Part shown: in pieces, positions 8,068-41,070 of the stretch
Layout of the letters: each line of letters starts with the position of its first letter
How positions within the stretch are numbered: the stretch's first letter is position 1
Origin: Syntrophorhabdales bacterium
Lineage (GTDB): Bacteria > Desulfobacterota > Syntrophorhabdia > Syntrophorhabdales > WCHB1-27
Direction of reading: 5' to 3'
DNA length: 64,000 bases
Assembly (NCBI GenBank): GCA_035315185.1
Contig: DATFYE010000027.1
Span: 4,021-68,020 of the forward strand
Notes under the pieces: model-generated
Seen by the model: the letters and a program-made list of their open reading frames with translations, nothing else
Told to the model about the DNA's origin: nothing
The model's database searches: none
Made by a program: the position numbers and the translations under genes

Positions 8068-8290
8068 AACGTCCTCTGCTATGTAACTGTGGCCACAAAT
8101 CTTCTAAGGATGAAGAAAGGGACGCGGAAGGCTGCTCCTTTCCATCTATCTATTCTTTACCTTATGGGCAACTTTGTCAAGCCATACCAAAGCGAGAGGA
8201 CGAGAACGGCTCCGCGGGAATTGCGGGTGCGAAGGAATGATAGAGCCGGGACCTCTCGGGCAGGCAACTCGCGCAACTGGCTCAGAAGGC

Positions 8291-8473: not shown

Positions 8474-8647
8474 GATTATTACCTCCTCTCAGTAGACACC
8501 GCATGACGGTATAGTATAATAAGTATCAATAATCAGACTATGGGGATGTGTCAAGGATATACGAATTTTAGATGGCAAATGCGCGGGGAAACCAGGGCAT
8601 AGATCGCACGATGCAATTCTGTCTGCGAGCAGCATGCACGGGGCGAC

Positions 8648-8663
8648 TGGCATGAGAATTGCT
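8648..8663 (+). promoter_or_regulatory. Sigma-54 (-24/-12) promoter candidate upstream of the DsbA-like gene
   Basis: TGGCAT-GAGAA-TTGCT has exact GG-N10-GC spacing. It lies ~125 nt upstream of the start codon. Confidence 0.5.
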
Positions 8664-8785
8664 GGTGCAGCAGAGATATCAGCGCAAGAAGGGGGTGGGA
8701 TGCTTCAAAAGCAGTATAATGGTACTATAATAAGTCTTTAGAATCGGCCGCCTGAGTCGATAACTTGTAGAAATAGAAAGGAGAG

Positions 8786-9646: not shown

Positions 9647-9688
9647 AACAGGGTCAAGGGACAAAGGCTAACGGTCAAGGTGAGACAT
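9647..9688. repeat. Degenerate heptanucleotide tandem array (6 units)
   Basis: AACAGGG TCAAGGG ACAAAGG CTAACGG TCAAGGT GAGACAT. It shares 14 of 15 nt (TCAAGGGACAAAGGC) with the array at 61096-61110. Confidence 0.6.
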
Positions 9689-9718
9689 GCCGAAGGGCCC
9701 CTTTGCGGGCCCTTCGGC
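9689..9718. terminator. Bidirectional hairpin terminator between convergent genes
   Basis: Perfect 12-bp stem GCCGAAGGGCCC / GGGCCCTTCGGC with loop CTTTGC, between the dsbA-like stop (9646) and the AKR stop (9721). Confidence 0.65.
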
Positions 9719-9720
9719 CT

Positions 9721-10770: not shown

Positions 10771-10787
10771 GTGATCTCATTATATAG

Positions 10788-10819
10788 CACCTTGCCTTCG
10801 CTTCATGCAAGGCAAGGTG
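10788..10819. other. Perfect 11-bp-stem hairpin in a divergent intergenic region
   Basis: CACCTTGCCTT-(10 nt)-AAGGCAAGGTG lies 18 nt upstream of the AKR start and ~100 nt upstream of the GT2 start. Confidence 0.4.
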
Positions 10820-10915
10820 AATGCAAGGTATTGAATTAATCTCGCCCTGGACTTACGTTACTATAGCTGTTGCAATAACTGCCCGTACAGGCAAATCGAA
10901 CCGGAGATCAAGAGT

Positions 10916-24724: not shown

Positions 24725-25102
24725 TTATACGTCCAGGTCCAGTTCTACCTCATCACCGTCCTTAATGTCCAGTGCGTCCTTGAGATGCACGGGCGCGACG
24801 ATCTCCAGTATTTGCTCGGGATAATTCGGAACGAGCGGTATGATGACGCCGCAATCGTAGCGCCCGTTTATTCGGCCGCGATACGTCAGGGCGTCGCAGA
24901 AACCTTCCTCGCAGGAAGAAAGCCGGTCGGTCCCCTCTCGTACCAGTTGCCGCTGAATGGCCGGGTCCTGCACGTCAATATTGAGAGTGCCACAGAAGGG
25001 CGTGAATTTGAACTTCTCGCATATCTCGCGGTTCACCCAATCGATCGCGAGAAATTTTCCTGACTCGCCAAGACCCGTGACAACCTTACCCTTGATTTTC
25101 AT
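24725..25102 (-). CDS. ribK: Archaeal-type CTP-dependent riboflavin kinase (DUF120/RibK)
   Basis: 125 aa. KGKVVTGLGESGKFL...CGTLNIDV...IIPLVPNYPEQILEIVAPVHLKDALDIKDGDEVEL aligns with my recollection of Methanocaldococcus RibK (G.VVSGLGEG.YFL, GTLN, EIIAP..LR...LKDGD). Confidence 0.75.
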   Translation of the reverse strand: MKIKGKVVTGLGESGKFLAIDWVNREICEKFKFTPFCGTLNIDVQDPAIQRQLVREGTDRLSSCEEGFCDALTYRGRINGRYDCGVIIPLVPNYPEQILEIVAPVHLKDALDIKDGDEVELDLDV

Positions 25103-25225: not shown

Positions 25226-25825
25226 CTACTGCTTTTTCCCCTTCTCCCGCACGAACTTCACGTCACTCTTTGCCCCCCACCGCTTGAAGAGCTTCCCGTC
25301 GATAGAAAAAAGGTCGAGGACCTTGCCAATGGTCTGGTCGATCAAGTTGTCGATCGTCTTAGGCATGTGGTAAAAGGCGGGGGCTGGCGGCATGATGACT
25401 CCCCCTATACGCGTGACCTTTGTCATGAGTTCCAGATGACCTTCGTGGAGCGGTGTCTCGCGCACCACGAGCACGAGCCTTCTCCGCTCCTTCAGGGTTA
25501 CGTCCGCTGCCCTGATCAGAAGATTGTAGTTAAACGAATTGGCGACCGCAGAGAGTGTTTTAATTGAGCAGGGTATGACGACCATGCCGTCGGTTTTGTA
25601 TGAACCACTGGCGATGGCCGCTCCGATGTCTTCCACGTCATAAACCGTGTGCGCCAATGCTTCAAGATCAGCCGGAGCATACTCTGTTTCGATGAGTAGA
25701 TTCTTGATCGCGGACTGAGTCACAACGAGGTGCGTTTCCACACTGCATGCGGCCAAAGCCTTCAACATCCGGACGCCGTAGATGACCCCCGTTGCGCCCG
25801 ATATGCCCACTATGATTCTTGTCAA
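25226..25825 (-). CDS. ubiX: Flavin prenyltransferase UbiX (prFMN synthase)
   Basis: 199 aa. The N-terminus RIIVGISGATGVIYGVRMLKAL and overall UbiX/Pad1 pattern fit. It overlaps the upstream UbiD gene by 4 nt. Confidence 0.9.
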   Translation of the reverse strand: MTRIIVGISGATGVIYGVRMLKALAACSVETHLVVTQSAIKNLLIETEYAPADLEALAHTVYDVEDIGAAIASGSYKTDGMVVIPCSIKTLSAVANSFNYNLLIRAADVTLKERRRLVLVVRETPLHEGHLELMTKVTRIGGVIMPPAPAFYHMPKTIDNLIDQTIGKVLDLFSIDGKLFKRWGAKSDVKFVREKGKKQ

Positions 25826-27153
25826 CAGACACCTCCGACGGATTTAAGAATTCGTTCAACGTTCTTACGGCTTCCGGCGGCAACACAGGCCTTCTCCTCG
25901 AACGTCTTCCCCTGCGTCGTCGCATCAATTCCCATCTTGGCTACCCCAAGACCGTGCTCGGCCTGAGGGTCGATAGCTTGCGCGTGCAGGTCAGGTACGA
26001 TCAGAATGTCCCTGTCGGCGAGGCACCTGGTAACCAGAGCCCATTCTACATCCCTGAGATTGTGAAGGTCAACGTCTTCATCCACAATAACTGCTTTCTT
26101 TATCGTCTGAAAGGCGAGTAGTGAGAGCACCAGATTACGTATTCTCGATCTGTGAACCGGCTTTACGGAAAGCACGACTGAGGATCCGAAGGTTTTTTGC
26201 ACGAATGCAATATCGACGATGAATGGGAAGAGCTTTTTCACCGTTTCCTCTATGTGAGCCCGGCTGACGAAGGTGAGATACGTATCCCCTTCGAGGCTTG
26301 TCGGCAAGAGAGCATGATACATCGGCGACGGCTGGTAGGAGAGCCGATTCACCACCATGGTAGGGCTTTCCTTGTTTGTCATGTAGTAGCCGCTGATTTC
26401 ACCAAGAGGCCCGTCCTGTCTCACATCCGTGGGGTCGACATAGCCTTCAAGGTAAATCTCCGCACCTGCCGGCGCGTCGATTGGAGAATCGAAAGATTCG
26501 ATCACCCTGATACCTTTTCCTTTTAGGCCGCCGGCCACTTCAAGCTTATCTGTACCTGGCTGCGCCTTTAGCGCCATCGATAGAAAGAGAATAGGATCGA
26601 CGCCCACCGCCACGGTAACAGGCATCCGCTCCCCTTTGGCCTTGTGCTTCTTGTAAATATCGACCAACGGCGGATTGATGATCGCTATACCTATGCGATC
26701 CTTGCCCCGGTACTCCATCCTGTGGACGCCTCTGCCCACAACGCCCGTATCCGGATCACGGGCCGCGACAATACTTGTGGTTATGAAGGGAGCCGAATCC
26801 TTCTCATAGTGTTTCAGTATCGGTAGAAGCTCCAGGAGGTCTCGTCCTTTAACACTCACGGTTTCCAGTTTTTTTTCGACCCGCACCTTTTTGGCCCTTT
26901 TTTTGAGGCTTTCAAGAAAGAACTGATACGGGTTATCCGTGTCGAAGAGAAGGCGAAAGATCTCGTGCGACGGGACGAGGTTCGCAACAAGGGAGCAGGT
27001 GTATCCCTTGAGGTTCTTGAAGAGCAGTACTTTCTTTGTGTCGGAGAGTCTCTCGATCAATTCGGGAATGTCTTCCCGGGTGACCTGATCCTGGATTTCA
27101 AGGAGCAGGCCACGCTTCTTCACAAAAGTAATGTAATCGCGCAGAGAGTCCAT
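25822..27153 (-). CDS. UbiD-family (prFMN-dependent) carboxylase subunit, phenylphosphate-carboxylase alpha/beta-like
   Basis: 443 aa UbiD fold. It sits in a UbiD-small-UbiD arrangement followed by ubiX. Confidence 0.8.
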   Translation of the reverse strand: MDSLRDYITFVKKRGLLLEIQDQVTREDIPELIERLSDTKKVLLFKNLKGYTCSLVANLVPSHEIFRLLFDTDNPYQFFLESLKKRAKKVRVEKKLETVSVKGRDLLELLPILKHYEKDSAPFITTSIVAARDPDTGVVGRGVHRMEYRGKDRIGIAIINPPLVDIYKKHKAKGERMPVTVAVGVDPILFLSMALKAQPGTDKLEVAGGLKGKGIRVIESFDSPIDAPAGAEIYLEGYVDPTDVRQDGPLGEISGYYMTNKESPTMVVNRLSYQPSPMYHALLPTSLEGDTYLTFVSRAHIEETVKKLFPFIVDIAFVQKTFGSSVVLSVKPVHRSRIRNLVLSLLAFQTIKKAVIVDEDVDLHNLRDVEWALVTRCLADRDILIVPDLHAQAIDPQAEHGLGVAKMGIDATTQGKTFEEKACVAAGSRKNVERILKSVGGVC

Positions 27154-27156
27154 AGT

Positions 27157-27411
27157 TCACATCCCTTTCGGTATAACATCGACGATTTCCAGTATCTGCA
27201 TCGAACAAGGGGTCTCTATGAGCTGCCCCCTCCCGAGCCTCAACCAGAGCCTTTCAGGATACTTCTCCGGATCAAGAGATATCTTGATCTTCGCGTGCGT
27301 TGACCGATACTTCTTTCTGCCCGGAGAGAGGTCCCGTATTACAGCCACCCACTCCTCACCCTCTCGTAAGTCACCAAAGTTTTTCTGTATAAACGTGTCC
27401 CAGACCGGCAT
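27157..27411 (-). CDS. 84-aa protein in the position and size of a phenylphosphate carboxylase gamma subunit (PpcC-like)
   Basis: It is wedged between two UbiD genes with 3- and 9-nt spacers and is ~10 kDa. The call rests on context and size only. Confidence 0.4.
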   Translation of the reverse strand: MPVWDTFIQKNFGDLREGEEWVAVIRDLSPGRKKYRSTHAKIKISLDPEKYPERLWLRLGRGQLIETPCSMQILEIVDVIPKGM

Positions 27412-27420
27412 GAAGACCTC

Positions 27421-28866
27421 CTAATCTTTGAAGCCGTACGTGCGCCACTTACTGAGCACGCGCTCTTGTATATCTTTGGGATAAGTGCTGTTGAAGGAGA
27501 CCGGGATGGGCAGGTCCGACGCAGGCCATTCCGGCGGGAAGAGACAGTCGAAAACAACCTTGGGGGTCCTGCTGAATTTTCGCTCCTCCGGGCTACAGAA
27601 GGGATTGAGTGGCGTGCCGAAACCGTGCTCTGTGACCCGGATGCCTCTCACCGGGTGGCAGCGTGTGCAGAGCGCGTGAATAATCGCATCCTTATTGTAG
27701 ATATCGGTCTTGTCATCCACTACGAGCACCATATGAAACCATGCGCCAAATTTGCTGCCGAACACGAGCTGGCTGATCTGGGTGGCGATGTTCGCGTAGA
27801 TCGGCTTTACGCCTACAACCACGAGATGATGCGTTGACTCCGGCAGCATATAGACCCCTGAGATGGGCAGTCCCTGGTCTCTCAGCATCCGGTCCATTTC
27901 AAGCGCCATCGAGAAAGAGCGGAGCAACTGTCCTTCGTCCGTTGGCACACCCATGTTGGAAACAGCCATGATCGGTTTCTTGCGCATAGTTACGGCCCTG
28001 ACACGGTAGACCGTCCGTTTATCGCGCGGGCTTGTCCTGTAACCCGTGTACTCGCCGAAGGGCGCTTCCTCTATGGTGAGGTTGGGCACAATTATACCCT
28101 CGATAATAATCTCTGCATGGGCCGGCACATACAGGTCACAGGTTTCACATTTCACGACCTCAACCGGCTCACCCATCAATTGCCCCGTAAACTCGGACTC
28201 CGCGATAGGGCTTGGAGCAGAGCTCGCTATGGCTGAAAGAGGATCAGGACTTATCACCGTGGCAAAAGGCATGGGAAGGTTGCGCGGAGCGTACTTGCCG
28301 TAAAGCATCTTACCCATGTCGGAGAAGGGGAGTACGGGGCCGACCATGGTTTTCTCATCAAAAAGCATCTGCCGGTACATACCCCAGTTGACGAAGTCCG
28401 TGTCATAATCTTTGGCCACGACAAAGTGCCAGGTACAGATATAGCGCCCCCCGTCACCGTCGTGGACCATGGGCGCCGGAAGATTGAGAAGGTTCGCGTC
28501 ATCGCCCGTGAGGATAATCTCTTTGCAGGGCGCATCCTTCCTGTCGATGATGCGAGGCGCGATCGGCGCTCCACGCGTTCTCTTCAAGTATTCTCCTTGT
28601 ATCTCGGGAATCGACGCCTCGGGAGGCAGGCCGAAACAGATGGCGAGCCGTCGGTACGTGGCTATCGGGGCACCGAAGGCTTCAAAGTCAGGATAGTCTT
28701 TTATTTTTTTGAAGTAAGCGGCAGGTGATTTGCGTTCACACATCCTGCGCACGATGGCGCCCATCTCAAGGTCCCAGTCCACCTCCTCGTTTACGACGAC
28801 AGCATCTCCCGTTTTCAGGAGCGCTTCAATGTAAGTCCTGTTGTCCTTGTAGTATTTATAAGCCAT
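27421..28866 (-). CDS. UbiD-family carboxylase subunit, phenylphosphate-carboxylase alpha/beta-like
   Basis: 481 aa UbiD fold. RBS AGGAGG. Confidence 0.8.
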   Translation of the reverse strand: MAYKYYKDNRTYIEALLKTGDAVVVNEEVDWDLEMGAIVRRMCERKSPAAYFKKIKDYPDFEAFGAPIATYRRLAICFGLPPEASIPEIQGEYLKRTRGAPIAPRIIDRKDAPCKEIILTGDDANLLNLPAPMVHDGDGGRYICTWHFVVAKDYDTDFVNWGMYRQMLFDEKTMVGPVLPFSDMGKMLYGKYAPRNLPMPFATVISPDPLSAIASSAPSPIAESEFTGQLMGEPVEVVKCETCDLYVPAHAEIIIEGIIVPNLTIEEAPFGEYTGYRTSPRDKRTVYRVRAVTMRKKPIMAVSNMGVPTDEGQLLRSFSMALEMDRMLRDQGLPISGVYMLPESTHHLVVVGVKPIYANIATQISQLVFGSKFGAWFHMVLVVDDKTDIYNKDAIIHALCTRCHPVRGIRVTEHGFGTPLNPFCSPEERKFSRTPKVVFDCLFPPEWPASDLPIPVSFNSTYPKDIQERVLSKWRTYGFKD

Positions 28867-29112: not shown

Positions 29113-29643
29113 CTATTGATAATGCGCCACAAGCTGGTCCCACTTCCCTTGAACTTTCAAGATGAATTCAGCGAGTTCCCGTGCTACCCCTTTTCCTCCG
29201 CCGGCCTTGGTCACGAGATCCGCAATTGCCCGAGCCTCGGGCGAGCCGTCCGCCGGCGCCACCGAAAAGAAGACGCGCTTCATGATACCCAGGTCGATCA
29301 TCTCATCACCCACATAACAGATGACATCGTCCTTGAGCCCCGACTGCTGTTCAAATTCATCGAGCCTGGCCATCTTTGCAGAGCTTCCCCAGAGCATATC
29401 GGGCGGAACGCCGTAGATCTTGGCCATCTGCTCCACGTCCCTCGACACTTTACTCGTCAGGAAAGAGACCCCCACGCCTGAATCCATGAGAGCCTTGATA
29501 CCGATGCGGTCCTGGAGAGAGAATGCTTCCGATTTCACCCCGTCCTGTGTATAGAAGAGGGTGTTGTCCGTAAGGATACCGTGAATATCAAAGATGACAA
29601 ACTTCACTTTCTTTGCCTTTTCAATTGCTTCTGCCTGACCCAT
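29113..29643 (-). CDS. KdsC-type HAD protein (phenylphosphate carboxylase delta-like), copy 2
   Basis: About 176 aa from ATG 29643 (RBS GGGGGTGAGG). Motif I reads FDIHG instead of DxDG. It is a paralog of the adjacent gene. Confidence 0.65.
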   Translation of the reverse strand: MGQAEAIEKAKKVKFVIFDIHGILTDNTLFYTQDGVKSEAFSLQDRIGIKALMDSGVGVSFLTSKVSRDVEQMAKIYGVPPDMLWGSSAKMARLDEFEQQSGLKDDVICYVGDEMIDLGIMKRVFFSVAPADGSPEARAIADLVTKAGGGKGVARELAEFILKVQGKWDQLVAHYQ

Positions 29644-29655
29644 CGTCCTCACCCC

Positions 29656-30213
29656 CTATTTGTAACCCATCTTTGTTACTTTCTCCACCCACTCATCCCA
29701 CTTGCCCATTGACCGCAGGATGAATTCACAGATTTCCCTTATGGGACCCCTGCCACCAGGCGCAGACGTTACGTGGTGAGCCAGTTCTTTCACTTCGGGA
29801 ATGGCATCGGCCACAGCCACCGCAAACCCAACCTTCTTCATCACCGGTATGTCGGATAGCTCGCACCCGATGTAACCGATCTGATCATCGGTCAGGTTCA
29901 GTTCCTTTTTCAGTTCTTCCAGCTTGGCCGTTTTGTCTGTCACGGCAAAGTACATCTTGTCGAGCTTCAATTCCTTTGCCCGATACAATCCTTCACCGTC
30001 GATGGAGGTACTATCGAGAAAGACGGGCTTTATGTCGTTCGCCATCATCGACAGGTCTCCAAACCCGTCCATGTGCCAGAAAGCGTACCGCCTGTTCCCT
30101 TCGACATCGCAGAAGACGGTATTCGTCGTGAGTACCCCATGGATGTCATGGGCAAATAGCTTTATCTTCTTTGCCCGCTCTTTCGCATCATTGATATTTT
30201 TTTCCAATGCCAT
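29656..30213 (-). CDS. KdsC-type HAD protein (phenylphosphate carboxylase delta-like), copy 1
   Basis: 185 aa. Motif I reads HDIHGVLT. KdsC-like length and pattern. Confidence 0.65.
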   Translation of the reverse strand: MALEKNINDAKERAKKIKLFAHDIHGVLTTNTVFCDVEGNRRYAFWHMDGFGDLSMMANDIKPVFLDSTSIDGEGLYRAKELKLDKMYFAVTDKTAKLEELKKELNLTDDQIGYIGCELSDIPVMKKVGFAVAVADAIPEVKELAHHVTSAPGGRGPIREICEFILRSMGKWDEWVEKVTKMGYK

Positions 30214-30255: not shown

Positions 30256-31674
30256 TCAATCGATTCCATATTCAGACCATCTGGCTTTGACCTTGGCAAG
30301 CATGCCTTCTGAAAGCTTGATCTCCGTGGGCTTAACTTTCCATTCGAAAGGTATGGTTGCATCCAGGATGATGCGTGAGGTGATAAACTTGTTCTCGTCA
30401 GCTCCAATGGCTGGATCGAGCGGAGTTGACCTGCCCCTGTTAATGATCTGAGTGCCTCTAAGAGGATTGTAGCGCGTACCGAGTGCCCACCATACTCTCG
30501 GAAGATCATCTGCATCGATATCATCATCCACGATGATGACGCATTTGATTCCGTACGTGCCGGTGTTGCTTGCGATGACCGCGGCACCCACCTGGTCCGC
30601 ATGGCCGGGATACATCTGCTGCACGGAAACGACTACTATGAAACGTCCTGAGCCTTCCGGCAGCGTATAGACCGACTTGATGCCGGGGATTTCCATCTTG
30701 ACCAGGTCAGTCCATAAGGAGGCGTTACGCGTAAAGGCGTAGAGCATATGCTGGTCGCCCACAGGCCTGCCAACGCTTGTCTCCCAGAGAATGGGGTTGT
30801 TTCTAAAGTAGACGCGCTTGACGTCAAGGGCGGGCTTGGGGATAGGTTTTATGAGTTCTTCCGTGTAGTAACCTGTGTACTCGCCGAAGGGCCCCTCGTT
30901 CCTCAGTTGTTGAGGATCGACCTCCCCTTCGAGGACGATCTCTGCGGCAGCCGGGATAGGAAGCCCTGTGAGCTGGCCTTTTACGACATCAACAGGTTCG
31001 CCGCGCAGAGAGCTTACCACATCGTATCCGCTCTTTGCTTTGACCGTTGCAGCGCTGGCAAAGATATGCAGCGGATCGCCGCCTATGATCGCGCAGGCAG
31101 GCATCTTCTTGCCCGCCTTAGCGTATTTCTTCATGATCCTGTCGCCTGTCTTCCCTTTTAGTATCTGGACGCCTATGGTCTTGTTGTCGAGGATGCCCAT
31201 GCGGTAGGTACCGAGGTTTATGTTGCCGGTCTCAGGGTCCTGCAATACCATGAATACTGCGGTGCCGAAATAGCGCCCTCCATCCAGCTCATAAAACTTG
31301 GGCGAAGGAAAGGCAAACGTGTCCACCTTGTCACCCTCAACGACGTTCTCGAAAATGGGACCGTCTTTCACTTCCTTTGCCCGGATCACTTCCTTGACCG
31401 CGACACTGACCCACTCCTTGGTAAGCTCCACCATGGAGAGCTTCGGACTCTTTCCAAGGATCATTGCCAGCCTCTGCGTGGTGCCGAATGCACCGGTCAG
31501 AACGGGGCTCTTATATCCCTTCACGTTTTCGAACAACAGTGCCGGGCCGCTCTTCTCTTCAACGACCTTTGCGACATGAGAGATTTCCAGATCCCAGTCT
31601 ACTTCCGCTCTTACCCTTTTTAGCTGCCCCTCTTTTTCGCACAAAGATATGAAGTCTCTAAGATCCATACGCAC
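30256..31674 (-). CDS. UbiD-family decarboxylase/carboxylase, third paralog (first gene of the operon)
   Basis: 472 aa UbiD fold. RBS GGGGG. Confidence 0.8.
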   Translation of the reverse strand: MRMDLRDFISLCEKEGQLKRVRAEVDWDLEISHVAKVVEEKSGPALLFENVKGYKSPVLTGAFGTTQRLAMILGKSPKLSMVELTKEWVSVAVKEVIRAKEVKDGPIFENVVEGDKVDTFAFPSPKFYELDGGRYFGTAVFMVLQDPETGNINLGTYRMGILDNKTIGVQILKGKTGDRIMKKYAKAGKKMPACAIIGGDPLHIFASAATVKAKSGYDVVSSLRGEPVDVVKGQLTGLPIPAAAEIVLEGEVDPQQLRNEGPFGEYTGYYTEELIKPIPKPALDVKRVYFRNNPILWETSVGRPVGDQHMLYAFTRNASLWTDLVKMEIPGIKSVYTLPEGSGRFIVVVSVQQMYPGHADQVGAAVIASNTGTYGIKCVIIVDDDIDADDLPRVWWALGTRYNPLRGTQIINRGRSTPLDPAIGADENKFITSRIILDATIPFEWKVKPTEIKLSEGMLAKVKARWSEYGID

Positions 31675-31879: not shown

Positions 31880-32767
31880 ATGCTCTCTTATTCTTTAGGT
31901 TCGCTCATTGTTTTTTCCAAGGTGGTCAAATATAAGAGCTTCTCCAGGGCAGCGGACGCGCTTTTCATGACCCAGCCCGGTGTCTCGAATCACGTTGCGC
32001 AGCTGGAGGCCCAGGCCGGCTTGAGCCTGCTTAGGAGGGATAGGGGAAAATTTGAACTGACGAAAGAAGGGAAGGTGGTTTACAGGTACGCTCAGAAAAT
32101 CGAGAAGGTGGCGCGGGAGCTTGAAGATACACTGCATGCACTCCACAATGAGATACGTCCTTTGCTTCGAGTAGGGACTGTGCCAACCTATTCGAGAATC
32201 ATGATGCCTCATGTGCTCGGAGGTTTTCAAAAGGAATACCCCGGCATCAAGATAAAACTGGATGTGGGTTCTTCCAGCGAAATGGAAAAGAGCCTGCTCT
32301 CGGGCCAGAACGATATCATAATAGTGGCCAGCCTGCACGTCTCAAAAAAGATGCAGGCTTTCCCTGCCGTGCGGGAAGAGCTTGTGCTGATTGCGGCTAA
32401 AAACCATCCTCTGACGCGAAAGAAGGCGGTTTCTTTGTCCGACGTTAAAGCTTACCCGTTCATCATCAGGGAAGAGGGTTCTGCAACGCGCGACGTGGTG
32501 CTTTCGGCCTTTTCGAAGATGGACATTACGCCTTCGGTGCTCATCGAAGCAAAGAGCACTGAATTCATCAAGGAGTGGGTGGCTCAGGGGAAGGGTGTTT
32601 CCGTCCTCATCAGGCGCGCAGTAGGTGGCGAAGAGGATAAGTCCATCACCCTTGTCCCGTTGCGTGAGCCACTCTTCTTAGAGGTTTCAGTGCTTTTCCT
32701 GAAAGCTCGGCGCTACGATCCATCGATTCAGAAGTTTGTTGGTCATGTTAAGGAATTACGGTTATAA
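31880..32767 (+). CDS. LysR-family transcriptional regulator
   Basis: 295 aa. N-terminal wHTH (FSRAADALFMTQPGVSNHVAQLE) and a C-terminal substrate-binding domain. It is divergent from the catabolic operon. Confidence 0.9.
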   Translation: MLSYSLGSLIVFSKVVKYKSFSRAADALFMTQPGVSNHVAQLEAQAGLSLLRRDRGKFELTKEGKVVYRYAQKIEKVARELEDTLHALHNEIRPLLRVGTVPTYSRIMMPHVLGGFQKEYPGIKIKLDVGSSSEMEKSLLSGQNDIIIVASLHVSKKMQAFPAVREELVLIAAKNHPLTRKKAVSLSDVKAYPFIIREEGSATRDVVLSAFSKMDITPSVLIEAKSTEFIKEWVAQGKGVSVLIRRAVGGEEDKSITLVPLREPLFLEVSVLFLKARRYDPSIQKFVGHVKELRL

Positions 32768-32825
32768 ATGCAGTAGTGTAGTACCCCACGATATTGTATT
32801 CAGTCTGGTGTCCGAATCCTAAGGT

Positions 32826-33239
32826 CTACTGTGTGAATTTTTTGATGATTTTCGCGGTAAGCTTGCGGCAGAGCTTCTCAACCATCTCTATCTCATCGTC
32901 TGTCAAGTTGTCCCAATGGATACCTGCGACGACCACCGAATTCCGCGCAAGCTTGCGGGTGAGTTCCTCAGCGAACGGTTTGGCCAGCAAGTCTTCCTTG
33001 TGGCCGAGAAAGGTGAATACCGAACTGGTCGCTGACGTTTCTTCTGCGTCCCTCAGGCTCTGGCGTACCTGGGCCATGCCCACTGCCCCGATATGAGGGA
33101 AAGTGCCACCCCAGATGGCCACCAGAATGTCGGGCCCCATCTCGCGGATGGCGGCATTGATCTTGAACTTTCCTTGCTTTACGGATACCGCGCAAGATCT
33201 CACAGATGATGATAAACCGGTACCGGGCGCAGCAGCCAT
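32826..33239 (-). CDS. Small alpha/beta protein, possible LpdD-like prenylated-flavin chaperone
   Basis: 137 aa. The motif ILVAIWGGTFPHIGAVGMA matches my recollection of LpdD-family proteins. Context is a UbiD/UbiX cluster. Not verified. Confidence 0.35.
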   Translation of the reverse strand: MAAAPGTGLSSSVRSCAVSVKQGKFKINAAIREMGPDILVAIWGGTFPHIGAVGMAQVRQSLRDAEETSATSSVFTFLGHKEDLLAKPFAEELTRKLARNSVVVAGIHWDNLTDDEIEMVEKLCRKLTAKIIKKFTQ

Positions 33240-33240
33240 G

Positions 33241-34473
33241 TCACAAGCCCCCCGGGTGCGAAGCCTTTATCATGCCATCCAGAATCTCCACCGCCCTCTC
33301 AGCGAAGGCGGGCTCACTTATGTGCACATCGAGCTCTTCGACGAGCACGCGAGGGTCAAGGAGGGTCTTAAGCTTCTCTGTGAAGACGCGGTCGACAGTC
33401 GGATCGAAGAGCGCCATGCCTTCTTTGTCAGCGTCCGACCATCCTTTCATGGGAATGAGGACACGTACGGGCCCCCTGCCTTTGTTGAGTTTGTCCGCCA
33501 CGATCTTCGCGAACTTCTCCATTTCAGCAGCTTCCATGCGCACGCAGAATCGGGTGTCATGGCCGTGGGTTCTTCTTCCCCTGAGCTCATCGGGCATAGG
33601 ATAGTAAGGGCTGAATACCGCATTGTCAAGACCGCCCGGTGCAAACACAAGCGGAATGCCCATTTTGCCAGCCGTCTCAAGCCGCTCAGGGCCGATGCCT
33701 TTGCAGTACCCTCCGAACATTTCATCGGCTATCTCGTGGGGGTTGAAGTCGAGCACCCCCGCGATGAGCCCTTCGGTGATCAACTCTTCCATCGCCATCC
33801 CGCCGCAACCGTTCGCATGGAACCCTATCATGTCATAACCTCTGGCGTCCAGAAGCGGCTCTGCCAACATGGCACACTTGGAGTTGATGCCATAAGCGGT
33901 CACCCCAACCATGGGGCGTTCCGTTCTAATTATGCTCTCCCTCTCCATCATGCCGCAGACAGCATAGGCAGCCTGGGCCAGGATGTGGCGCATAAAATCA
34001 TTGAATCCCAGAAGGTCTGCTACGGAGTGAAACATTACGATATCTTTTGTCCCGACATATTCTCTCACGTCCCGCGATGCAACCGTTGACACAACCACCT
34101 TCGGGAAACCAAAAGGCAGCGAGCGCATGATGAAGGTTACAATAGCCGTGCCTGTCCCGCCCCCGAGACCGATGACACCATCGATCTGGCCCCTTTGTTG
34201 AAGCCGCGTCGCCATGATGGCCCCGCCTGTCTGCACCGTCCGGACTGCCGTGGACCTGTCCTGCTCTGCCAGGTTTGTATCGAGCTCAGACCCGGCTGCA
34301 TAGGTCAGATCGTCCCGGGTAAGATCAGGAGGGGCCTGGGGCGGACTAAGGGTGCCGACGTCCATGAGCAGGGTCTTAGCGCCTCGCTCTTCGGCGCACT
34401 CCCTGATATAGGCGGCCTCTCGCGCTTTTGTATCCAGCGTAGCGATGACGAGGAGCCGTTTTCTCGAACTCAT
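33241..34473 (-). CDS. Tm-1-like ATP-binding protein (UPF0261 family)
   Basis: 410 aa. The N-terminus KRLLVIATLDTKAREAAYIRE... and overall pattern fit UPF0261. Confidence 0.7.
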   Translation of the reverse strand: MSSRKRLLVIATLDTKAREAAYIRECAEERGAKTLLMDVGTLSPPQAPPDLTRDDLTYAAGSELDTNLAEQDRSTAVRTVQTGGAIMATRLQQRGQIDGVIGLGGGTGTAIVTFIMRSLPFGFPKVVVSTVASRDVREYVGTKDIVMFHSVADLLGFNDFMRHILAQAAYAVCGMMERESIIRTERPMVGVTAYGINSKCAMLAEPLLDARGYDMIGFHANGCGGMAMEELITEGLIAGVLDFNPHEIADEMFGGYCKGIGPERLETAGKMGIPLVFAPGGLDNAVFSPYYPMPDELRGRRTHGHDTRFCVRMEAAEMEKFAKIVADKLNKGRGPVRVLIPMKGWSDADKEGMALFDPTVDRVFTEKLKTLLDPRVLVEELDVHISEPAFAERAVEILDGMIKASHPGGL

Positions 34474-34523
34474 GGCAGCTGGTCTCCTTCAGTTTTCCCG
34501 CGCAGATCCGTCTTTTTGCCTCT

Positions 34524-35633
34524 CTACACGCTTTGGTCCGGTGGCGGGGTTCCCGGCGGATTGGGTAACGTCAATGGCCACCTCAGCCAAAAGGCATTGT
34601 GGGCGATAAAAGCGGGCGCCAGAATGCAGAGATTGAGATAGATGATAAGGATGTTTATGTCAGCAGGAAGCTTAGCGGCTGCGACGGCATCGGCAGCGGG
34701 ACCCAATATTACGTTGCAGATGGCGATCCAGACAGCGCTGATCACAAACACAACTATAATGGCCGCGATGGCCCTTGTCGCACCTGTAAGTTTTGTGATC
34801 CCCCAGAACTGGAAATGCCAGGAGTAAAGGAGTGACCAGGTGACAATGGAAGAAGCTACAGCCCCGAAAGAGAATGTGGGACCGACACCGATTGCCAGAC
34901 TCCCGCTCCAGCATATGAGAGCTAGAATGTGCGAGAGGATGGTCTGACCTATGGCTGCTCCGGGATGACCCCATTTGGTAAAGGGCCAGCCCTGGGTTAC
35001 GAAGACGGGGCAGAATACGAAGAACCAGGCGATTGCCCATACGATGTATCCTGTGAGCCAGTTCACGTTGAGAGGACCTTTATGGTCCATCGGCGTATTG
35101 GCGACCGGCGTTCCATCAAGGTTCGTCAGGAGATTCCAGACGAGGATGGTAACAACCATAACAACGACGAACCCTGCCGCCATAGTGCCCCAAGGGTGGA
35201 GCCGCCCCTTGAAGGGCCAGGTATTCCAGTTCTTGCCGTAGAGGAGCGTACACCAGAACCCTATTGCGCCAAACCAGAGATAAAGAGGTCCGATTGGCCA
35301 TTGCGGATAGACGAATCGCATGAAGAGCAGGATTAGAAAAGTGAATACGGCCCACAGTATGGTCATCTTAATTCCTACCGCGACCCGTGACTTCGCAGGC
35401 GTCCAGTTACCCGCAGGAGGTGCACACGGAAAGCAATCCCCTATGAGCACCAGGTGCCCCTCTGCAATGAGCATGATAAGAATCGCAGGTAGTAGCTTCA
35501 ATACAAGCAATGCCGGCGGTACCGCATATACAAAACAGAGAACTCCGAGGATCGCCATGGCAAGGAATTGAATGAGACCGCCTGCCCTCCCCTCCGGACC
35601 GATGCCAATCTTTGCCTGCTTTTCGTTTCCCAT
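34524..35633 (-). CDS. Trp-rich polytopic membrane protein of unrecognised family
   Basis: 369 aa with about 9-10 TM helices. About 24 Trp residues (6.5%), for example YPQWPIGPLYLWFGAIGFWCTLLYGKNWNTWPF. Confidence 0.6.
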   Translation of the reverse strand: MGNEKQAKIGIGPEGRAGGLIQFLAMAILGVLCFVYAVPPALLVLKLLPAILIMLIAEGHLVLIGDCFPCAPPAGNWTPAKSRVAVGIKMTILWAVFTFLILLFMRFVYPQWPIGPLYLWFGAIGFWCTLLYGKNWNTWPFKGRLHPWGTMAAGFVVVMVVTILVWNLLTNLDGTPVANTPMDHKGPLNVNWLTGYIVWAIAWFFVFCPVFVTQGWPFTKWGHPGAAIGQTILSHILALICWSGSLAIGVGPTFSFGAVASSIVTWSLLYSWHFQFWGITKLTGATRAIAAIIVVFVISAVWIAICNVILGPAADAVAAAKLPADINILIIYLNLCILAPAFIAHNAFWLRWPLTLPNPPGTPPPDQSV

Positions 35634-35800
35634 AACTCCCCCCTTTTTTTACTACTTTCGATGTCTCATGCAATACCCGACGGGTTAGCGCTCCCCACTT
35701 TGTCGCATGTCCCCGGTCCTTTACAATATCTCCGCACCCCGTCACCCACCCTCGAATCTGTTGCGTGCTTTGGGCCCTTGAAGCCTCGGACCCCTGAACC

Positions 35801-36865
35801 CTATTTTATTCTCACTCCAGCCAGCAATTGGCTCACGATGCGATCCAAGGCGTCCTTTTTCTGGTCGGTTTTCGGCGCAGCCTCCTTTTTACTCCAGACT
35901 GATTCGGGTCTCACCTGGAGGATGATGACATTATCGGGAAAATTAAAATCAGCATCGATCCCGAATTCGATATCGTAAGGTTTTCCGTAATAGCTCTCGA
36001 TCAATTTTCCCACGCGGGCAAGCTCTTTCAGCTCCTGCTGCGTAAGGCATGGAACGCATCTCATCTCGGCGGGCACTTCTGTCTGGAGGATGTCGCTCCC
36101 GTTCTCCCTGTAAACGCACTGGGTCTCCTTGCTCCCGATGGTTGTCTTGATAATATCGAGGGTTACTTTGTCGACAAGATAGGTGTCGGGCGTGACCATA
36201 CCACTGACTACGGCCTCTCCAAGCCCGCAACTCGCATCTATGGAGATCTTTGAAGGATCACCGTTGACAGGATTGATGGTGAAGATAATCCCCGACACCC
36301 TGGAATTGACCATCTTAGGAATGCCGACCCCTATGTTAAAGAGGAACGGTATTCCCTTGTTCATACGGTACATGATTGCCTCAGTGTTGTACGCACTGGC
36401 CCAGCATCTCTTGACATAATCAATCAAGTCCTTTTCACCGCGGATGTTGAGGTAGGTCTCCATCTGACCGGGCATGGACACAGCGCCACTGGAGCGAACC
36501 GCTACCGGGCAGACTCCGGTCTTGGTCCTTTCGCAGAGCTTCCTGTAATTGGCCAGGATATCCGCTTCGATGTCGGCAGGTACCTTCGCGTTCTCGATAA
36601 GGCGAATGGCCATCTCACTTGCCTGCTTTGCGCTTTCGTACGTTACCTGCCCCAGCTCGGTCAATTGCTTCTCCAGCTCTGCCTTTATCCCGGTATCGAC
36701 CAGGAATTTCTCATTCGCGTAAATGGTGATGGAGAATCCTGGAGAAACCGGTATCCCCGCTTTGATCATTTCCCCGAGGTTGGCATTCTTTTTTCCGACT
36801 AAAGGGAAGTCGCTGCCGTCCATCTCGTCGTACCACAGAGTGAATATTTTCTCTTTCTCTGTCAT
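35801..36865 (-). CDS. ppsB: PEP-synthase N-terminal (ATP-grasp, PPDK_N) protein, phenylphosphate synthase beta-like
   Basis: About 354 aa from ATG 36865 (RBS GGAGG). FPLVGKKNANLGEMIKAGIPVSPGF motif. Confidence 0.75.
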   Translation of the reverse strand: MTEKEKIFTLWYDEMDGSDFPLVGKKNANLGEMIKAGIPVSPGFSITIYANEKFLVDTGIKAELEKQLTELGQVTYESAKQASEMAIRLIENAKVPADIEADILANYRKLCERTKTGVCPVAVRSSGAVSMPGQMETYLNIRGEKDLIDYVKRCWASAYNTEAIMYRMNKGIPFLFNIGVGIPKMVNSRVSGIIFTINPVNGDPSKISIDASCGLGEAVVSGMVTPDTYLVDKVTLDIIKTTIGSKETQCVYRENGSDILQTEVPAEMRCVPCLTQQELKELARVGKLIESYYGKPYDIEFGIDADFNFPDNVIILQVRPESVWSKKEAAPKTDQKKDALDRIVSQLLAGVRIK

Positions 36866-36899
36866 GCGTTTAGCCTCCACCAGGCGGAACCGGCTTTTC

Positions 36900-36961
36900 T
36901 CTCAACCTCAACCTTAACCTTCGCTGTGGTCTCTTCCTCGACCTGGTCTCTCAACCTCAAC
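36900..36961. repeat. Two copies of the 13-mer TCTCAACCTCAAC in the ppsA-ppsB spacer (third copy at 52132-52144)
   Basis: Exact 13-mers at 36900-36912, 36949-36961 and 52132-52144. The surrounding sequence is made of CTCAAC/CTTAAC words. Confidence 0.65.
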
Positions 36962-36983
36962 GTGAACCTGTTCCTCAGCCGGC

Positions 36984-38825
36984 TCACTTCTTTCTTTCGA
37001 GTATCTGCACCAATCCGGTGTCGCCATTGATCCGGAGCAGGTCACCGGTCTTGATGAGCTGGGTGCCTTTGCCTGTTCCCACAACCGTCGGCAATCCGTA
37101 TTCCCTGCAGACGATGGCTGCATGACACATCGGACCGCCCACGTCAGTGACGGCCCCCGCAATCTTCACGAAGGCAGGCGCCCAGCTTGGCGAAGTGGTA
37201 GTTGCCACCAGTATCTCACCTTCCTTGAGGTCTGCAAGCTGGTCTACGGTCTTCAGAACCCTCGCCCTGCCTTCAACGACACCGGAAGAGCCCGCCGAGC
37301 CTCTAATTTCATTCTGTACCTCTCCTTCTGCGGGACCGGCCAGCCATTTCTGCAGCGATTCGTTGGTGACGCCCCAGAGTACGATCGTGAAGGGCTCTGT
37401 GACGACATCAGGCGGTACACCGAGGGCAGGAGGTGGCGTCCACTGTTTGAACTTCTCATAAACACCTTTTCTCCAGGCAATCTCTTTCGGCCAGTAAGAA
37501 GGTCCTCTGGCCCTGACGCCTGTTGCCCAGGCGGTGACATGGTCCCAGAGCGCCTGCTTGATCTCGTCACGCTTCAGAAACCATATGTCCTCATCGGCAT
37601 TTTCAATGAATCCCGCGTTCTGCAGGATCTGGCCCACCTGGCGGACCTTTGCCCAGAACAAGCTGTGGAACCAGTGTTCAACGTAGAAGTTGTGGTCCTC
37701 AGCGTGAGGAAGCACCAGCCGTGCCACCGCCAGACCCTGATCGAAGGCCTCCCTGTCTGCGTCGGTCTTGATCAGTTTCCTGTACTCGTCGGCAATCCTG
37801 TCCCGCTCCTTCAGGAGCTTCGCGGTAGGTCTCCCCAACTCCTTGCCAGCTTTGAGGGCCTTGATGTTCGTCCTGATGTTGTCGAAAGGCACGTCAAGAT
37901 TGTCGTTCCAACTGATATGAGTGTGGTACCAGCCGGTTCCCGTGGAGATATGGAACCAGGGGTATCGCGCCTTCTCCAGTTCCTTGAGCCACTCTTTTCC
38001 CACCGGATGCTTTGCCAGTTCCCTCATCAATTCATCGGCCTTCAAGGGTTTTAAAACGATATCCTCAACACCGACCTCGATGGCGAGTTTCGCAAGCCTG
38101 ATCAGCTCCGCGTCAGGTTTGAAAAGGATCGGGTCAAAGCCCGCCGACATCTTGACGAGGGTAGATATCGGCACATCCGGGAAAATCTGATTGGCCGTGC
38201 CGAAGAAGGTCACCTGGGCAGCGTAGCACAGGTTGAGGAATTCAAAATGGTACTGCCAGCACAAGAGACCCAGATCGATGAGTTCATCATACTTTCTCAA
38301 GAGCTCATAGCCGCTCCCCTTTCCGATTCCTTCTTTGATGACGCTTATATCCTCCATCTCGGGCAAATCGGTGAAAGTCATCGCTTCGAGTTTGTTGATG
38401 GTGGCGGTCATCTTCTTCTTCCAGTTTTCGTAGAGCCGGTCCCAGTTCTGGAAATAGTACCCGGCACGCTCCATGAAGAGCGGTACCCGCCGCCCCACTT
38501 CCTCCGGGTCCGGAACGCCCACCGGGCTGATGTAAACATACCCGTTCACGATCCTGTGATCGATACCGAGGGCAGGCGGAATAATGTAGTGACGGGTGTT
38601 GTACTGCGACAGCGCCAAAGACCAAGCTTCATCCCATATGAGATCGAAAGGATAGTGAGGCTCAGGATAGTGCAGGCCATCATAGAACCATATCTGGCTG
38701 CTCTCAAATTTCGCCCTTTCCGGGTCCTCCTTGGAAAAGATATACTGATACGGGTAGAGTTTTTCCCAACCTTCAGTACCGGGAATTTTGGGAACATCGT
38801 GTGGATCCATAAACGTTTTTGCCAT
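36984..38825 (-). CDS. ppsA: Phenylphosphate synthase alpha-like (PEP-utilising enzyme with C-terminal mobile His domain)
   Basis: About 613 aa from ATG 38825 (RBS GGAGGAGG). C-terminal GAVTDVGGPMCHAAIVCREYGLPTVVG. Confidence 0.78.
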   Translation of the reverse strand: MAKTFMDPHDVPKIPGTEGWEKLYPYQYIFSKEDPERAKFESSQIWFYDGLHYPEPHYPFDLIWDEAWSLALSQYNTRHYIIPPALGIDHRIVNGYVYISPVGVPDPEEVGRRVPLFMERAGYYFQNWDRLYENWKKKMTATINKLEAMTFTDLPEMEDISVIKEGIGKGSGYELLRKYDELIDLGLLCWQYHFEFLNLCYAAQVTFFGTANQIFPDVPISTLVKMSAGFDPILFKPDAELIRLAKLAIEVGVEDIVLKPLKADELMRELAKHPVGKEWLKELEKARYPWFHISTGTGWYHTHISWNDNLDVPFDNIRTNIKALKAGKELGRPTAKLLKERDRIADEYRKLIKTDADREAFDQGLAVARLVLPHAEDHNFYVEHWFHSLFWAKVRQVGQILQNAGFIENADEDIWFLKRDEIKQALWDHVTAWATGVRARGPSYWPKEIAWRKGVYEKFKQWTPPPALGVPPDVVTEPFTIVLWGVTNESLQKWLAGPAEGEVQNEIRGSAGSSGVVEGRARVLKTVDQLADLKEGEILVATTTSPSWAPAFVKIAGAVTDVGGPMCHAAIVCREYGLPTVVGTGKGTQLIKTGDLLRINGDTGLVQILERKK

Positions 38826-38857
38826 AAATTCCTCCTCCCCTTTTTTTGTGAAGCTAT

Positions 38858-39505
38858 TTAGAGCCTGAACCATTTCGGTTCATCGAATCGTTCGGTACAG
38901 CGCAGTATGCGGCTCGCATAGTTCATGACATAGGTGCCCTTCAGCTTCAGGTTGAGTTTTCTGAACTCCTCGTTATTCAGGAGGCGACCAATGTCAACTG
39001 GATCCTTGAAAGTGAACTCGCTGATGATTTCACTTATGCCCCCCAGGACGACGTTCCAACCCCCTGTCACTTCCATATAGTCAATTGTTTCTATGGTAGG
39101 AAGGTATTCTTTGACAATAAAGTCCGCATACTCTTTTTTCACGCCCGGCTTCAAGTCGTAGTACTGATTCAATTTCCATACACCCTTCTGAATTGTGTAT
39201 GTACCCCGCTTCACCCTGCCGGTCGGCTCGAGGACAGCAGTCCTGTAATTGTAAATGGTCGATTTAAGCCTGAGGGAGAGCTGTTTGAACCGGTCAGTGG
39301 CGATAACGCGAGAGAGCAGCTCCAGATCGTTTGCCAAGCTGACTCCGATCACTCTTGGGCCAAAACCGACCTCAACGTAATAGCCGCCGACGTGGGTAAG
39401 CCCCAAGGCAGTCGTCTCCGGCAGAAACGTCCCGCCGATAAAATCAGCGTATTCATCTTCTTTCCCCTGGATGATATCCCAAGCCATGGTAAACAGAACA
39501 GGCAT
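38858..39505 (-). CDS. 24-kDa protein made of two tandem ~105-aa homologous domains, unknown family; first gene of the pps operon
   Basis: Internal repeat: KEDEYADFIGGTFLPE...RFKQLSLRLKSTIYNY versus KKEYADFIVKEYLPT...EFRKLNLKLKGTYVMNY. Confidence 0.55.
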   Translation of the reverse strand: MPVLFTMAWDIIQGKEDEYADFIGGTFLPETTALGLTHVGGYYVEVGFGPRVIGVSLANDLELLSRVIATDRFKQLSLRLKSTIYNYRTAVLEPTGRVKRGTYTIQKGVWKLNQYYDLKPGVKKEYADFIVKEYLPTIETIDYMEVTGGWNVVLGGISEIISEFTFKDPVDIGRLLNNEEFRKLNLKLKGTYVMNYASRILRCTERFDEPKWFRL

Positions 39506-39686: not shown

Positions 39687-39837
39687 CTAAATTATTTTTA
39701 TATGATATAAGAAAAACTTATGATGTATAGTTATAGCGGTGTAGCTTTTGGAGAAACAGTTGAGTCACTAAATTATAATCTGCTAAACTGCGTCATGTCC
39801 TTTGAAAGCCAGGCTCAAGGCAAGCGAGAAATGGGTA

Positions 39838-41070
39838 ATGACTATTAATCTCCGTCCTTATCTTGAAGTCTACCGAAGCCGACGCATCGGTATGATGCTG
39901 ATTCTCGGATTTTCCTCGGGCTTGCCCCTGGCCCTTACAGGCGGCACGCTGCAAGCATGGATGACGATGGTTGGCGTAGACCTCCGCACTATCGGCGTCT
40001 TCTCTCTCGTAGCTCTTCCGTACACGCTTAAGTTCCTCTGGTCCCCATTGATGGATCGCTATGTGCCTCCGTGGCTCGGTAGACGCCGAGGGTGGATGAT
40101 CTCTACGCAGGTTGTTCTTTTCTTAGCTATTTTTGCCATGGCATTCGGTTCTCCCCGGCATGCATTGGGGGTTGTAGCACTCCTGGCGTTTTTTGTAGCG
40201 TTCGCATCCGCGTCTCAGGACATTGTGATTGATGCGTATCGCACGGATCTGCTCCAGGAAGCAGAGCGGGGCGCGGGAACAGCGGTCTATGTCACGGGCT
40301 ACCGGATCGCCATGCTTGTCTCCGGGGCAGGGGCTCTCATCCTGTCTGATCGCATCGGTTGGCGAAACACCTACCTGTTGATGGCCTTTGTAATGGTCAT
40401 CGGTATAATCGGCGCGCTTTTCGGCCCGGAGCCTGACATCCAGGCAAAGCCACCGAAAACTTTGCGAGAGGCCGTGTGGGGGCCGCTCAAAGACTTTTTC
40501 TCACGTCACGGCGCGCTCTCCATCCTTTTTTTCATCGTGCTTTACAAATTAGGAGATGCCTACGCCGGTTCCCTGACAACGGCGTTTCTGATCAGGGGTG
40601 CCGGGTTTTCACCCACTGATGTCGGCACGGTAAACAAAGGCTTGGGGCTCATATCCGTGATTGTCGGTGCAACTATCGGTGGATCGCTCATGGTGCGGCT
40701 TGGGCTCTTCAGATCACTTCTCTACTTCGGTATTCTTCAGGCGGTTTCCAACCTTTCGTTCATGGTGCTGGCCTGGGTGGGAAAGAGCTACCCGGTGATG
40801 ATTTTTGCCGTGGCTTTTGAAAATTTTGCCGGAGGCATGGGGACCTCGGCCTTTGTGGCCTTTCTCATGGGTCTCTGCAATCATCGATATAGCGCAACGC
40901 AATTTGCTTTACTCTCATCGCTCGCGGTGCTTGGACGAGTCCTCATTTCGCCGACCTCGGGCTACATGGTTGAATCGCTGGGGTGGGCAAACTTTTTCTT
41001 ACTCACCGCATTGACGGCGCTGCCTGGCCTCGCGCTCCTCTACTGGCTCAGGAAGGATATTTCGAATTAA
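39838..41070 (+). CDS. ampG: AmpG-family MFS muropeptide permease
   Basis: About 410 aa from ATG 39838. ILGFSSGLPLALTGGTLQAWM...PYTLKFLWSPLMDRY is typical of AmpG. Confidence 0.78.
   Translation: MTINLRPYLEVYRSRRIGMMLILGFSSGLPLALTGGTLQAWMTMVGVDLRTIGVFSLVALPYTLKFLWSPLMDRYVPPWLGRRRGWMISTQVVLFLAIFAMAFGSPRHALGVVALLAFFVAFASASQDIVIDAYRTDLLQEAERGAGTAVYVTGYRIAMLVSGAGALILSDRIGWRNTYLLMAFVMVIGIIGALFGPEPDIQAKPPKTLREAVWGPLKDFFSRHGALSILFFIVLYKLGDAYAGSLTTAFLIRGAGFSPTDVGTVNKGLGLISVIVGATIGGSLMVRLGLFRSLLYFGILQAVSNLSFMVLAWVGKSYPVMIFAVAFENFAGGMGTSAFVAFLMGLCNHRYSATQFALLSSLAVLGRVLISPTSGYMVESLGWANFFLLTALTALPGLALLYWLRKDISN

Follow-up and report, generated by a model that had tools for sequence, protein, structure and literature searches.

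The window analysed here is a 64,000-nucleotide stretch of contig DATFYE010000027.1 from a Syntrophorhabdales bacterium (assembly GCA_035315185.1), and it carries a complete cluster for the anaerobic phosphorylation and carboxylation of phenol. Three minus-strand open reading frames of this cluster, located 3′ of ppsB and convergent with a LysR-type regulator gene (Table 1), encode a membrane protein of 369 amino acids (aa), a 410-aa UPF0261 protein and a 137-aa LpdD-like protein. Our results are best explained if these are independent accessories of the phenol pathway, namely a chaperone of the LpdD type, a MarK-like kinase of phenolic compounds and a membrane protein for substrate entry or hand-over, a reading to which we give a probability of about 0.55. 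An earlier inspection of the DNA (the sequence-only reading) had noticed the same three co-directional genes after ppsB, which we found where it had placed them, and had proposed that they act together as a single module.

Three accessory genes rather than one module

Loci of the membrane gene were collected from one genome per species, which yielded 66 loci, 61 of them with a full-length copy. Genes in the compared loci were labelled by phmmer or tblastn searches with the window proteins, UbiD paralogues are named after their best match, and many of the loci lie on incomplete contigs of metagenome-assembled genomes (MAGs). Besides the window, the order membrane gene-UPF0261-LpdD was found in two of the 61 loci, both from close relatives, and on one metagenome contig. 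Other clusters held ppsAB-UPF0261-LpdD without the membrane gene, or ppsAB-LpdD alone, and in most Syntrophaceae-type loci the UPF0261 orthologue was convergent to the membrane gene (in L027, the single such locus checked, a deacetylase-like gene precedes the orthologue). Because the exact order recurs in only 2 of the 61 loci, we conclude that the three genes are independent accessory genes of the phenol pathway and not a single module. The core of the cluster is formed by the pps genes, LpdD, LysR and the UbiD/HAD/PpcC/UbiX/RibK genes, and the UPF0261 and membrane genes are mobile insertions between ppsB and LpdD. The connection with phenol metabolism drawn in the sequence-only reading was borne out by the co-occurrence analysis, since the genes of the trio are syntenic with pps and UbiD genes in other genomes.

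The 137-aa protein belongs to the LpdD family

The sequence-only reading had likened the 137-aa protein to LpdD on the basis of a motif, and this likeness proved right. The protein scores 126 bits (curated cut-off 27) over residues 21-135 against PF21758, named LpdD_chaperone in the newer Pfam release, and the crystal chains of L. plantarum LpdD match residues 19-132 with an E value of 3e-8. The GGTFPHIG motif of the 137-aa protein is the His35 motif of LpdD. His35, His61 and Asp63 are the metal/cofactor-site residues of LpdD (PMC10865409); they align with H49 (in GGTxPH), H80 and E82-D83 of the window protein, with Glu opposite Asp63, and H49, H80, E82 and D83 were invariant among 21 homologues. 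When the AlphaFold2 (AF2) model (predicted local distance difference test, pLDDT, 84.3) was submitted to Foldseek, the top six matches were LpdD chains (E values from 7e-9 to 8.5e-8, template modelling score 0.68-0.82, root-mean-square deviation 2.0-3.1 Å), followed by the proteasome chaperones PAC3, PAC4 and Pba3/4, the same fold kinship that is reported for LpdD (PMC10865409). Pfam family, sequence, predicted fold and conserved metal ligands thus make the 137-aa protein a firm member of the LpdD family.

L. plantarum LpdD (PDB 8PO5/8PZH/8PZO) is a chaperone of the gallate decarboxylase LpdBC that binds only the reduced prenylated flavin mononucleotide (prFMNH2) and assists the activation of apo-UbiD. 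In common with it, the window protein has the Pfam family, a predicted Pba3/4-like beta-sandwich with two helices, the His35/His61/acidic site and a gene neighbourhood with UbiD and UbiX. In contrast, the two proteins are ∼24% identical, and the one from the window has a 13-residue N-terminal extension and Glu-Asp at Asp63; it accompanies a multi-subunit system of the phenylphosphate-carboxylase type in a strict anaerobe, whereas its counterpart serves a gallate decarboxylase in a lactic acid bacterium. In an evenly drawn sample of 301 genomes of the phylum, the family was present in 73, nearly always as one copy. ubiX was the immediate neighbour of LpdD in 32 of the 57 assessable loci, that is, those having at least 2 kb on both sides, and in the window, three UbiD genes and ubiX are located no more than 8 kb from the LpdD gene. 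If it acts as L. plantarum LpdD does, the 137-aa protein would bind the prFMNH2 made by UbiX and pass it to the UbiD-type carboxylase subunits.

The 410-aa protein keeps the ATP loop and phenol-binding residues of MarK

As described in the sequence-only reading, the 410-aa protein is a UPF0261 protein without the usual phosphoenolpyruvate (PEP)-hydrolase-like TIM-barrel partner. Both UPF0261 domains are present (PF06792, 194 bits; PF23189, 215 bits), and PF09370, the TIM-barrel family, gave no match in the 97%-complete window genome. The protein shares the UPF0261 ATP-binding fold with tomato Tm-1 and with the bacterial UPF0261/PEP_hydrolase (PF09370) pairs (3wry, E 4e-59), but differs from these Tm-1-type pairs in that neither a TIM-barrel domain nor a partner gene was found in the window genome. 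An end-to-end match was obtained with MarK (PDB 9MPY, E 4.9e-59; residues 2-402 of 406 of 9mpy aligned). MarK (Saro_1862 of Novosphingobium aromaticivorans) is the first UPF0261 protein with a known activity, the ATP-to-ADP phosphorylation of phenolic hydroxyls, which is also the sole activity known for UPF0261; its ATP loop is D14-T15-K16, G195, H219 and H304 contact the phenolic oxygen and ring, and H348 binds the ketone (PMC12624787).

The ATP loop D14-T15-K16 is kept in the 410-aa protein, and G195, H219 and H304 of MarK correspond to its G195, H219 and H305. H348, the ligand of the ketone oxygen that is tied to acetovanillone specificity, is replaced by Ala348 in the 410-aa protein and its clade, and the 410-aa protein has Asn/Val for F283/I285, which makes a phenolic substrate without a ketone group plausible. 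The DTK loop and G195/H219/H305 are kept throughout the orthologue clade (52-91% identity). Two further UPF0261 clades in related clusters are without the MarK signature, one having D-E-R and Gln at the H305 position and the other the D-T-K loop but Ser/Leu at the two His. The D-E-R/Gln clade was always located between a ppcB-like UbiD gene and UbiX (L017, L024, L039, L046, L047, L048, L113).

Like MarK, the 410-aa protein stands alone, without a TIM-barrel partner, in an aromatic-catabolic cluster that also holds a dikinase of the AcvAB/HpeHI/PpsAB type. Unlike the MarK operon, with its biotin-dependent acvCDEF-type carboxylase (AcvCDE), the neighbours in the window are ppsAB and prFMN/UbiD-type, HAD and UbiX genes, and the host is a strict anaerobe. 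In the literature searched, no link between Tm-1/UPF0261 and phenylphosphate was found. The 410-aa protein is best read as a MarK-like phenolic kinase, predicted by residue conservation, for which UbiD-type carboxylation in strict anaerobes is a new pathway context. The view that nothing of the kind had been described is by now superseded by published work on two of the three proteins, LpdD (PMC10865409) and UPF0261/MarK (PMC12624787).

UPF0261 genes follow pps and UbiD genes

Of the 57 assessable LpdD loci, 17 also have pps or UbiD, and 12 of these have UPF0261 at a distance of at most 8 kb, as against 2 of the 40 loci without pps or UbiD, counts that are descriptive only because related genomes are not independent. 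In these 40 loci, where pps and UbiD are missing within 8 kb, LpdD was usually accompanied by UbiX. A general role in prFMN maturation explains this pattern less well than one on the substrate side, where aryl phosphates would be made available to UbiD/HAD carboxylases. Because the MarK residues are kept and UPF0261 tracks the pps and UbiD genes, a role as phenolic kinase is more likely for the 410-aa protein than prFMN loading.

The window genome has four more UPF0261 genes. In L076 of this genome (G000:C181:9000-25000, ∼3139-10294), a LysR-controlled operon with the order HAD-231aa-UbiD-GcvT-like-UbiD-UPF0261 is followed by tripartite ATP-independent periplasmic (TRAP) transporter genes and has no pps dikinase. 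Its UPF0261 protein keeps DTK/G/H/H, and the operon may combine a kinase with a carboxylase for the conversion of a methoxylated phenol. L078 (G000:C198:1-15000, 6409-11880, minus strand) is a second ppsA-ppsB-x215-UPF0261 operon of the window genome, whose UPF0261 protein has a D-T-R loop and, in place of H305, Gln; L025 and L064 show this arrangement immediately behind the membrane gene.

The single module of the sequence-only reading, in which a Trp-rich channel admits phenol while UPF0261 and LpdD carry out the ATP-dependent loading or maturation of prFMN in the UbiD carboxylase, appears distinctly unlikely to us. The UPF0261 and LpdD genes are 1 nt apart in the window, UPF0261-LpdD(-UbiX) adjacency was seen in 8 of the 57 LpdD loci, and in at least 7 loci a member of a clade of UPF0261 paralogues separates UbiD from UbiX. 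In addition, how prFMNH2 is oxidized in strict anaerobes is still an open question (PMC10865409, PMC13040415). However, UbiX is the main partner of LpdD and UPF0261 is absent from 38 of the 40 loci mentioned above; LpdD is missing where the membrane gene faces a convergent UPF0261 orthologue; the clade present in the window retains the phenol-binding residues of MarK; and phenolic phosphorylation is the sole known activity of UPF0261 (PMC12624787). These results, together with the rarity of the exact trio order, do not uphold the module.

A second alternative would make UPF0261 a kinase of a cofactor precursor, for example converting prenol to dimethylallyl phosphate for UbiX, or acting in a flavin-related phosphorylation. 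UbiX requires dimethylallyl monophosphate, a dedicated riboflavin kinase gene follows ubiX in the window and in related clusters, and in a Desulfosarcina locus two UPF0261 genes come after UbiX-RibBA-FMN_dh. We nevertheless regard this function as highly improbable, given that stand-alone LpdD-UbiX loci do without UPF0261 and that the conserved pocket formed by His219, His305 and Gly195 is the site at which MarK binds its aromatic substrate (PMC12624787).

A conserved ten-helix membrane family without a name

The 369-aa protein had been described as a membrane protein with about 24 Trp residues and no recognised family; no named family was found in our searches either, but the Trp count is 21, with 14 of these residues conserved in at least 90% of 28 homologues. 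Searches of Pfam, NCBIfam and PDB sequences gave no match for the protein, nor did ten distant relatives match Pfam or NCBIfam. A word-based search of 5.8 billion proteins retrieved 124 relatives, all annotated as 'hypothetical' and 45-88% identical, from Syntrophia-, Syntrophorhabdia-, Desulfomonilia- and Desulfobacteria-type MAGs and from Desulfosarcina, and a full hidden Markov model search of 1.84 billion representatives returned 67 clusters, which contained only the family itself and fragments. Conservation is high (mean column identity 67%), with invariant loops rich in Pro, Trp and Gly and a C-terminal motif, WLRWPLTLPxPPGTPPPDQ. The confident AF2 model (pLDDT 85.7, predicted template modelling score 0.84) shows ten long helices followed by a tail without order, and conserved polar residues lie within the transmembrane segments. 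According to the positive-inside rule, both termini and the loops of highest conservation (65-82, 136-146 and 208-224) would be cytoplasmic.

Structural comparisons were equally uninformative as to family. Foldseek against the PDB gave no usable match for the model (best E 0.13), and the best hit of a wide VIA-align structural scan was a de novo designed helical barrel (Z 6.9), G-protein-coupled-receptor-like bundles having Z 4-5. Neighbour clusters in the ESM Atlas had no Pfam family and a single automatic name, 'AAT family amino acid transporter', which we take as a lead only. Profile and fold searches linked the protein with no known transporter family, in line with the sequence-only reading. 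Identification as a Na+-decarboxylase beta subunit or an H+-pyrophosphatase was dropped for lack of a profile match and because of the wrong size. The motif WPFxKxxHP occurs twice (residues 138-147 and 216-224), before transmembrane helices 5 and 7 and ∼78 residues apart; alignment of the N-half with the C-half by hhalign recovered only this short motif, with a probability of 4%, and a 5+5 repeat is not supported. The 369-aa protein represents a small, highly conserved family of ten-helix membrane proteins without a name and is the least understood part of the cluster.

The neighbourhood of the gene was more informative. In 48 of the 61 loci the available flank held pps genes: the membrane gene immediately followed a co-oriented ppsB in 29 loci and had ppsA as its next downstream gene in 4. 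UbiD was found in 31 of the 61, UPF0261 in 37 and LpdD in 9. In Desulfomonilaceae-type operons the order is ppsA-ppsB-UbiD-aryl-CoA ligase-UPF0261-CBS protein-membrane gene. The membrane gene, itself ∼70% identical, accompanies two ppsAB lineages (∼42% and 57-97% identity to those of the window), so that it is linked with the function and not with a single lineage of genes. Of the 301 sampled genomes, 6 have the membrane gene; all 6 have ppsA as well, and the two genes are adjacent in 5. Divergent members (50-56% identity) adjoin a gene for a Phenol_MetA_deg outer-membrane channel and molybdopterin or 4-hydroxybenzoyl-CoA-reductase-like genes, a pairing that is the best hint of a transport role. 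The only clue to the function of the 369-aa protein is its tight synteny with phenol-activating kinases and, in the side branch, with phenol-type outer-membrane channels. In one MAG (L059, 7379-9823), the membrane gene directly follows the gene of a membrane H+-pyrophosphatase.

Instead of transporting its substrate, the 369-aa protein could be a membrane anchor or scaffold of Pps/Ppc, a sensor, or a device that couples ions or protects the cell from toxic phenol. We consider this rather unlikely, since the ten long transmembrane helices hold conserved polar residues, a soluble domain is lacking and the divergent members pair with Phenol_MetA_deg channel genes. On the other side, phenol diffuses through membranes, the fold resembles that of no transporter, one locus has the gene behind that of an H+-pyrophosphatase, and conservation is strongest in the presumably cytoplasmic loops and in a disordered tail whose Pro-rich sequence is typical of protein-binding motifs.

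A proposed route for phenolic substrates

According to our preferred reading of three independent accessories, the 369-aa protein would admit or retain the phenolic substrate at the membrane and hand it to the cytoplasmic kinase via its conserved cytoplasmic loops and Pro-rich tail. The 410-aa protein, as a MarK-like ATP-to-ADP kinase, would then phosphorylate the phenolic hydroxyl of phenol or a substituted phenol, and the resulting aryl phosphate would feed the UbiD/HAD carboxylase in parallel to the AMP-forming PpsAB dikinase or in its place. We infer the biochemical activities, the kinase substrate and the transport role in this scheme from the gene identities, conserved residues, folds and synteny presented above.

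Several observations weigh against the scheme. The change of His348 to Ala and a carboxylase that is UbiD-type and not biotin-dependent would leave the substrate of the kinase undefined, and with PpsAB already there, a second phenol kinase looks redundant. Phenol crosses membranes unaided, a major facilitator superfamily (MFS) transporter gene (39802-41070) already adjoins the pps operon, and the 369-aa protein resembles no known transporter. Some loci of the membrane gene (Desulfosarcina, L058/L062) have no aromatic genes nearby, and 55 of the sampled genomes have ppsA, only 6 of them with the membrane gene, which is therefore an optional extra. Finally, the 1-nt spacing and the recurrent adjacency of UPF0261 and LpdD would also be compatible with a link to the cofactor. 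A bolder version, in which the 410-aa protein as an ADP-forming phenol kinase and the 369-aa protein form a membrane-associated 'admit and trap' system, is in our view decidedly doubtful.

Organization of the locus and comparison with described clusters

The gene order is x215-ppsA-ppsB-membrane-UPF0261-LpdD, LysR, UbiD-HAD-HAD-UbiD-PpcC-UbiD-UbiX-RibK (Table 1). The spacings from ppsB to the membrane gene (167 bp), from there to UPF0261 (50 bp) and from UPF0261 to the LpdD-like gene (1 nt) suggest that the trio is probably co-transcribed with ppsAB; a promoter and terminator scan of 32600-37100 revealed nothing decisive on operon boundaries. The N-termini of the three proteins agree with those of their homologues.

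Table 1. Genes of the phenol cluster in the window
Feature	Positions	Strand	Remarks
Predicted inner-membrane protein, 369 aa	34524-35633	-	No named family; 10 predicted transmembrane helices; N- and C-termini probably cytoplasmic; Pro-rich C-terminal tail
UPF0261 protein, 410 aa	33241-34473	-	MarK-like candidate ATP-dependent kinase of phenolic hydroxyl; PF06792 and PF23189
LpdD-family predicted prFMNH2-binding chaperone, 137 aa	32826-33239	-	PF21758
ppsB-like phenylphosphate synthase subunit	35801-36880	-	PPDK_N ATP-binding domain
ppsA-like phenylphosphate synthase subunit, PEP-utilizer mobile domain	36984-38873	-	NF006152, 890 bits
215-aa protein (x215), first gene of the pps operon	38858-39505	-	Without family match; accompanies ppsAB in other loci
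LysR-type regulator	31880-32767	+	Convergent with the trio, divergent from the UbiD operon
UbiD-family phenylphosphate carboxylase beta-type subunit	30256-31674	-	TIGR02724, 681 bits
Two tandem KdsC/PpcD-like HAD proteins	29113-30213	-	
UbiD paralogue (481 aa), PpcC gamma subunit (27157-27411), UbiD paralogue (443 aa)	25822-28866	-	
UbiX flavin prenyltransferase	25226-25825	-	
CTP-dependent riboflavin kinase (RibK)	24725-25102	-	

As in the clusters of Thauera aromatica and Desulfatiglans anilini (ppsABC, ppcABCD; PMC6114531), ppsA, ppsB, UbiD-type alpha/beta subunits, the PpcC gamma subunit, a KdsC-like delta subunit and UbiX are present. Unlike them, the window has a 215-aa non-CBS protein in place of PpsC, three UbiD paralogues and a duplicated delta gene. 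The parts of the D. anilini description available to us (PMC6114531) name no LpdD, UPF0261 protein or membrane protein of the 369-aa type. The nearest public relative of the locus is a Syntrophobacterales MAG, with a membrane protein 95% identical. With 30 UbiD-family matches, a single PF21758 match (the LpdD gene) and no PF09370, the window genome resembles a specialist of aromatic (de)carboxylation.

The riboflavin kinase gene directly 3′ of ubiX is of the archaeal CTP-dependent type, and this arrangement is shared by related clusters (L073, L074, L006). In a Desulfosarcina locus, genes for RibBA, an FMN-dependent dehydrogenase and a PNPOx-like protein surround UbiX. When the window was compared with L027, L041 and L051, the ppcB-like UbiD was 89% identical, yet ppsA only ∼43% and ppsB ∼40%; the cluster seems to be a mosaic in which the pps pair and the 215-aa gene were swapped for another lineage in these loci. 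A single in-frame TGA lies within the ppsA-like match (∼42% identity) of three genomes of one family (G024:C118, G065:C37, G101:C4), and it could mark a conserved site of selenocysteine insertion or read-through, or else stem from the assembly.

Biological significance

Phenylphosphate synthase spends two ATP equivalents, a long-standing energy problem of anaerobic phenol degradation by syntrophs and sulfate reducers. A second problem concerns the cofactor, namely the supply of mature prFMN to UbiD carboxylases in the absence of oxygen. The operon described here supplies a candidate one-ATP phenolic kinase, a predicted prFMNH2 chaperone and an unstudied membrane protein conserved at ∼70% identity. 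If the 'admit and trap' system were real, the activation of phenol would cost energy-limited strict anaerobes one ATP equivalent and not two as with PpsAB, and the 369-aa protein would be the first member of a novel class of channels for aromatic substrates, which use a conserved Pro-rich tail to dock to cytoplasmic kinases. The membrane family, with ∼67 clusters among 1.84 billion representatives, is the part of the operon most likely to yield novelty.

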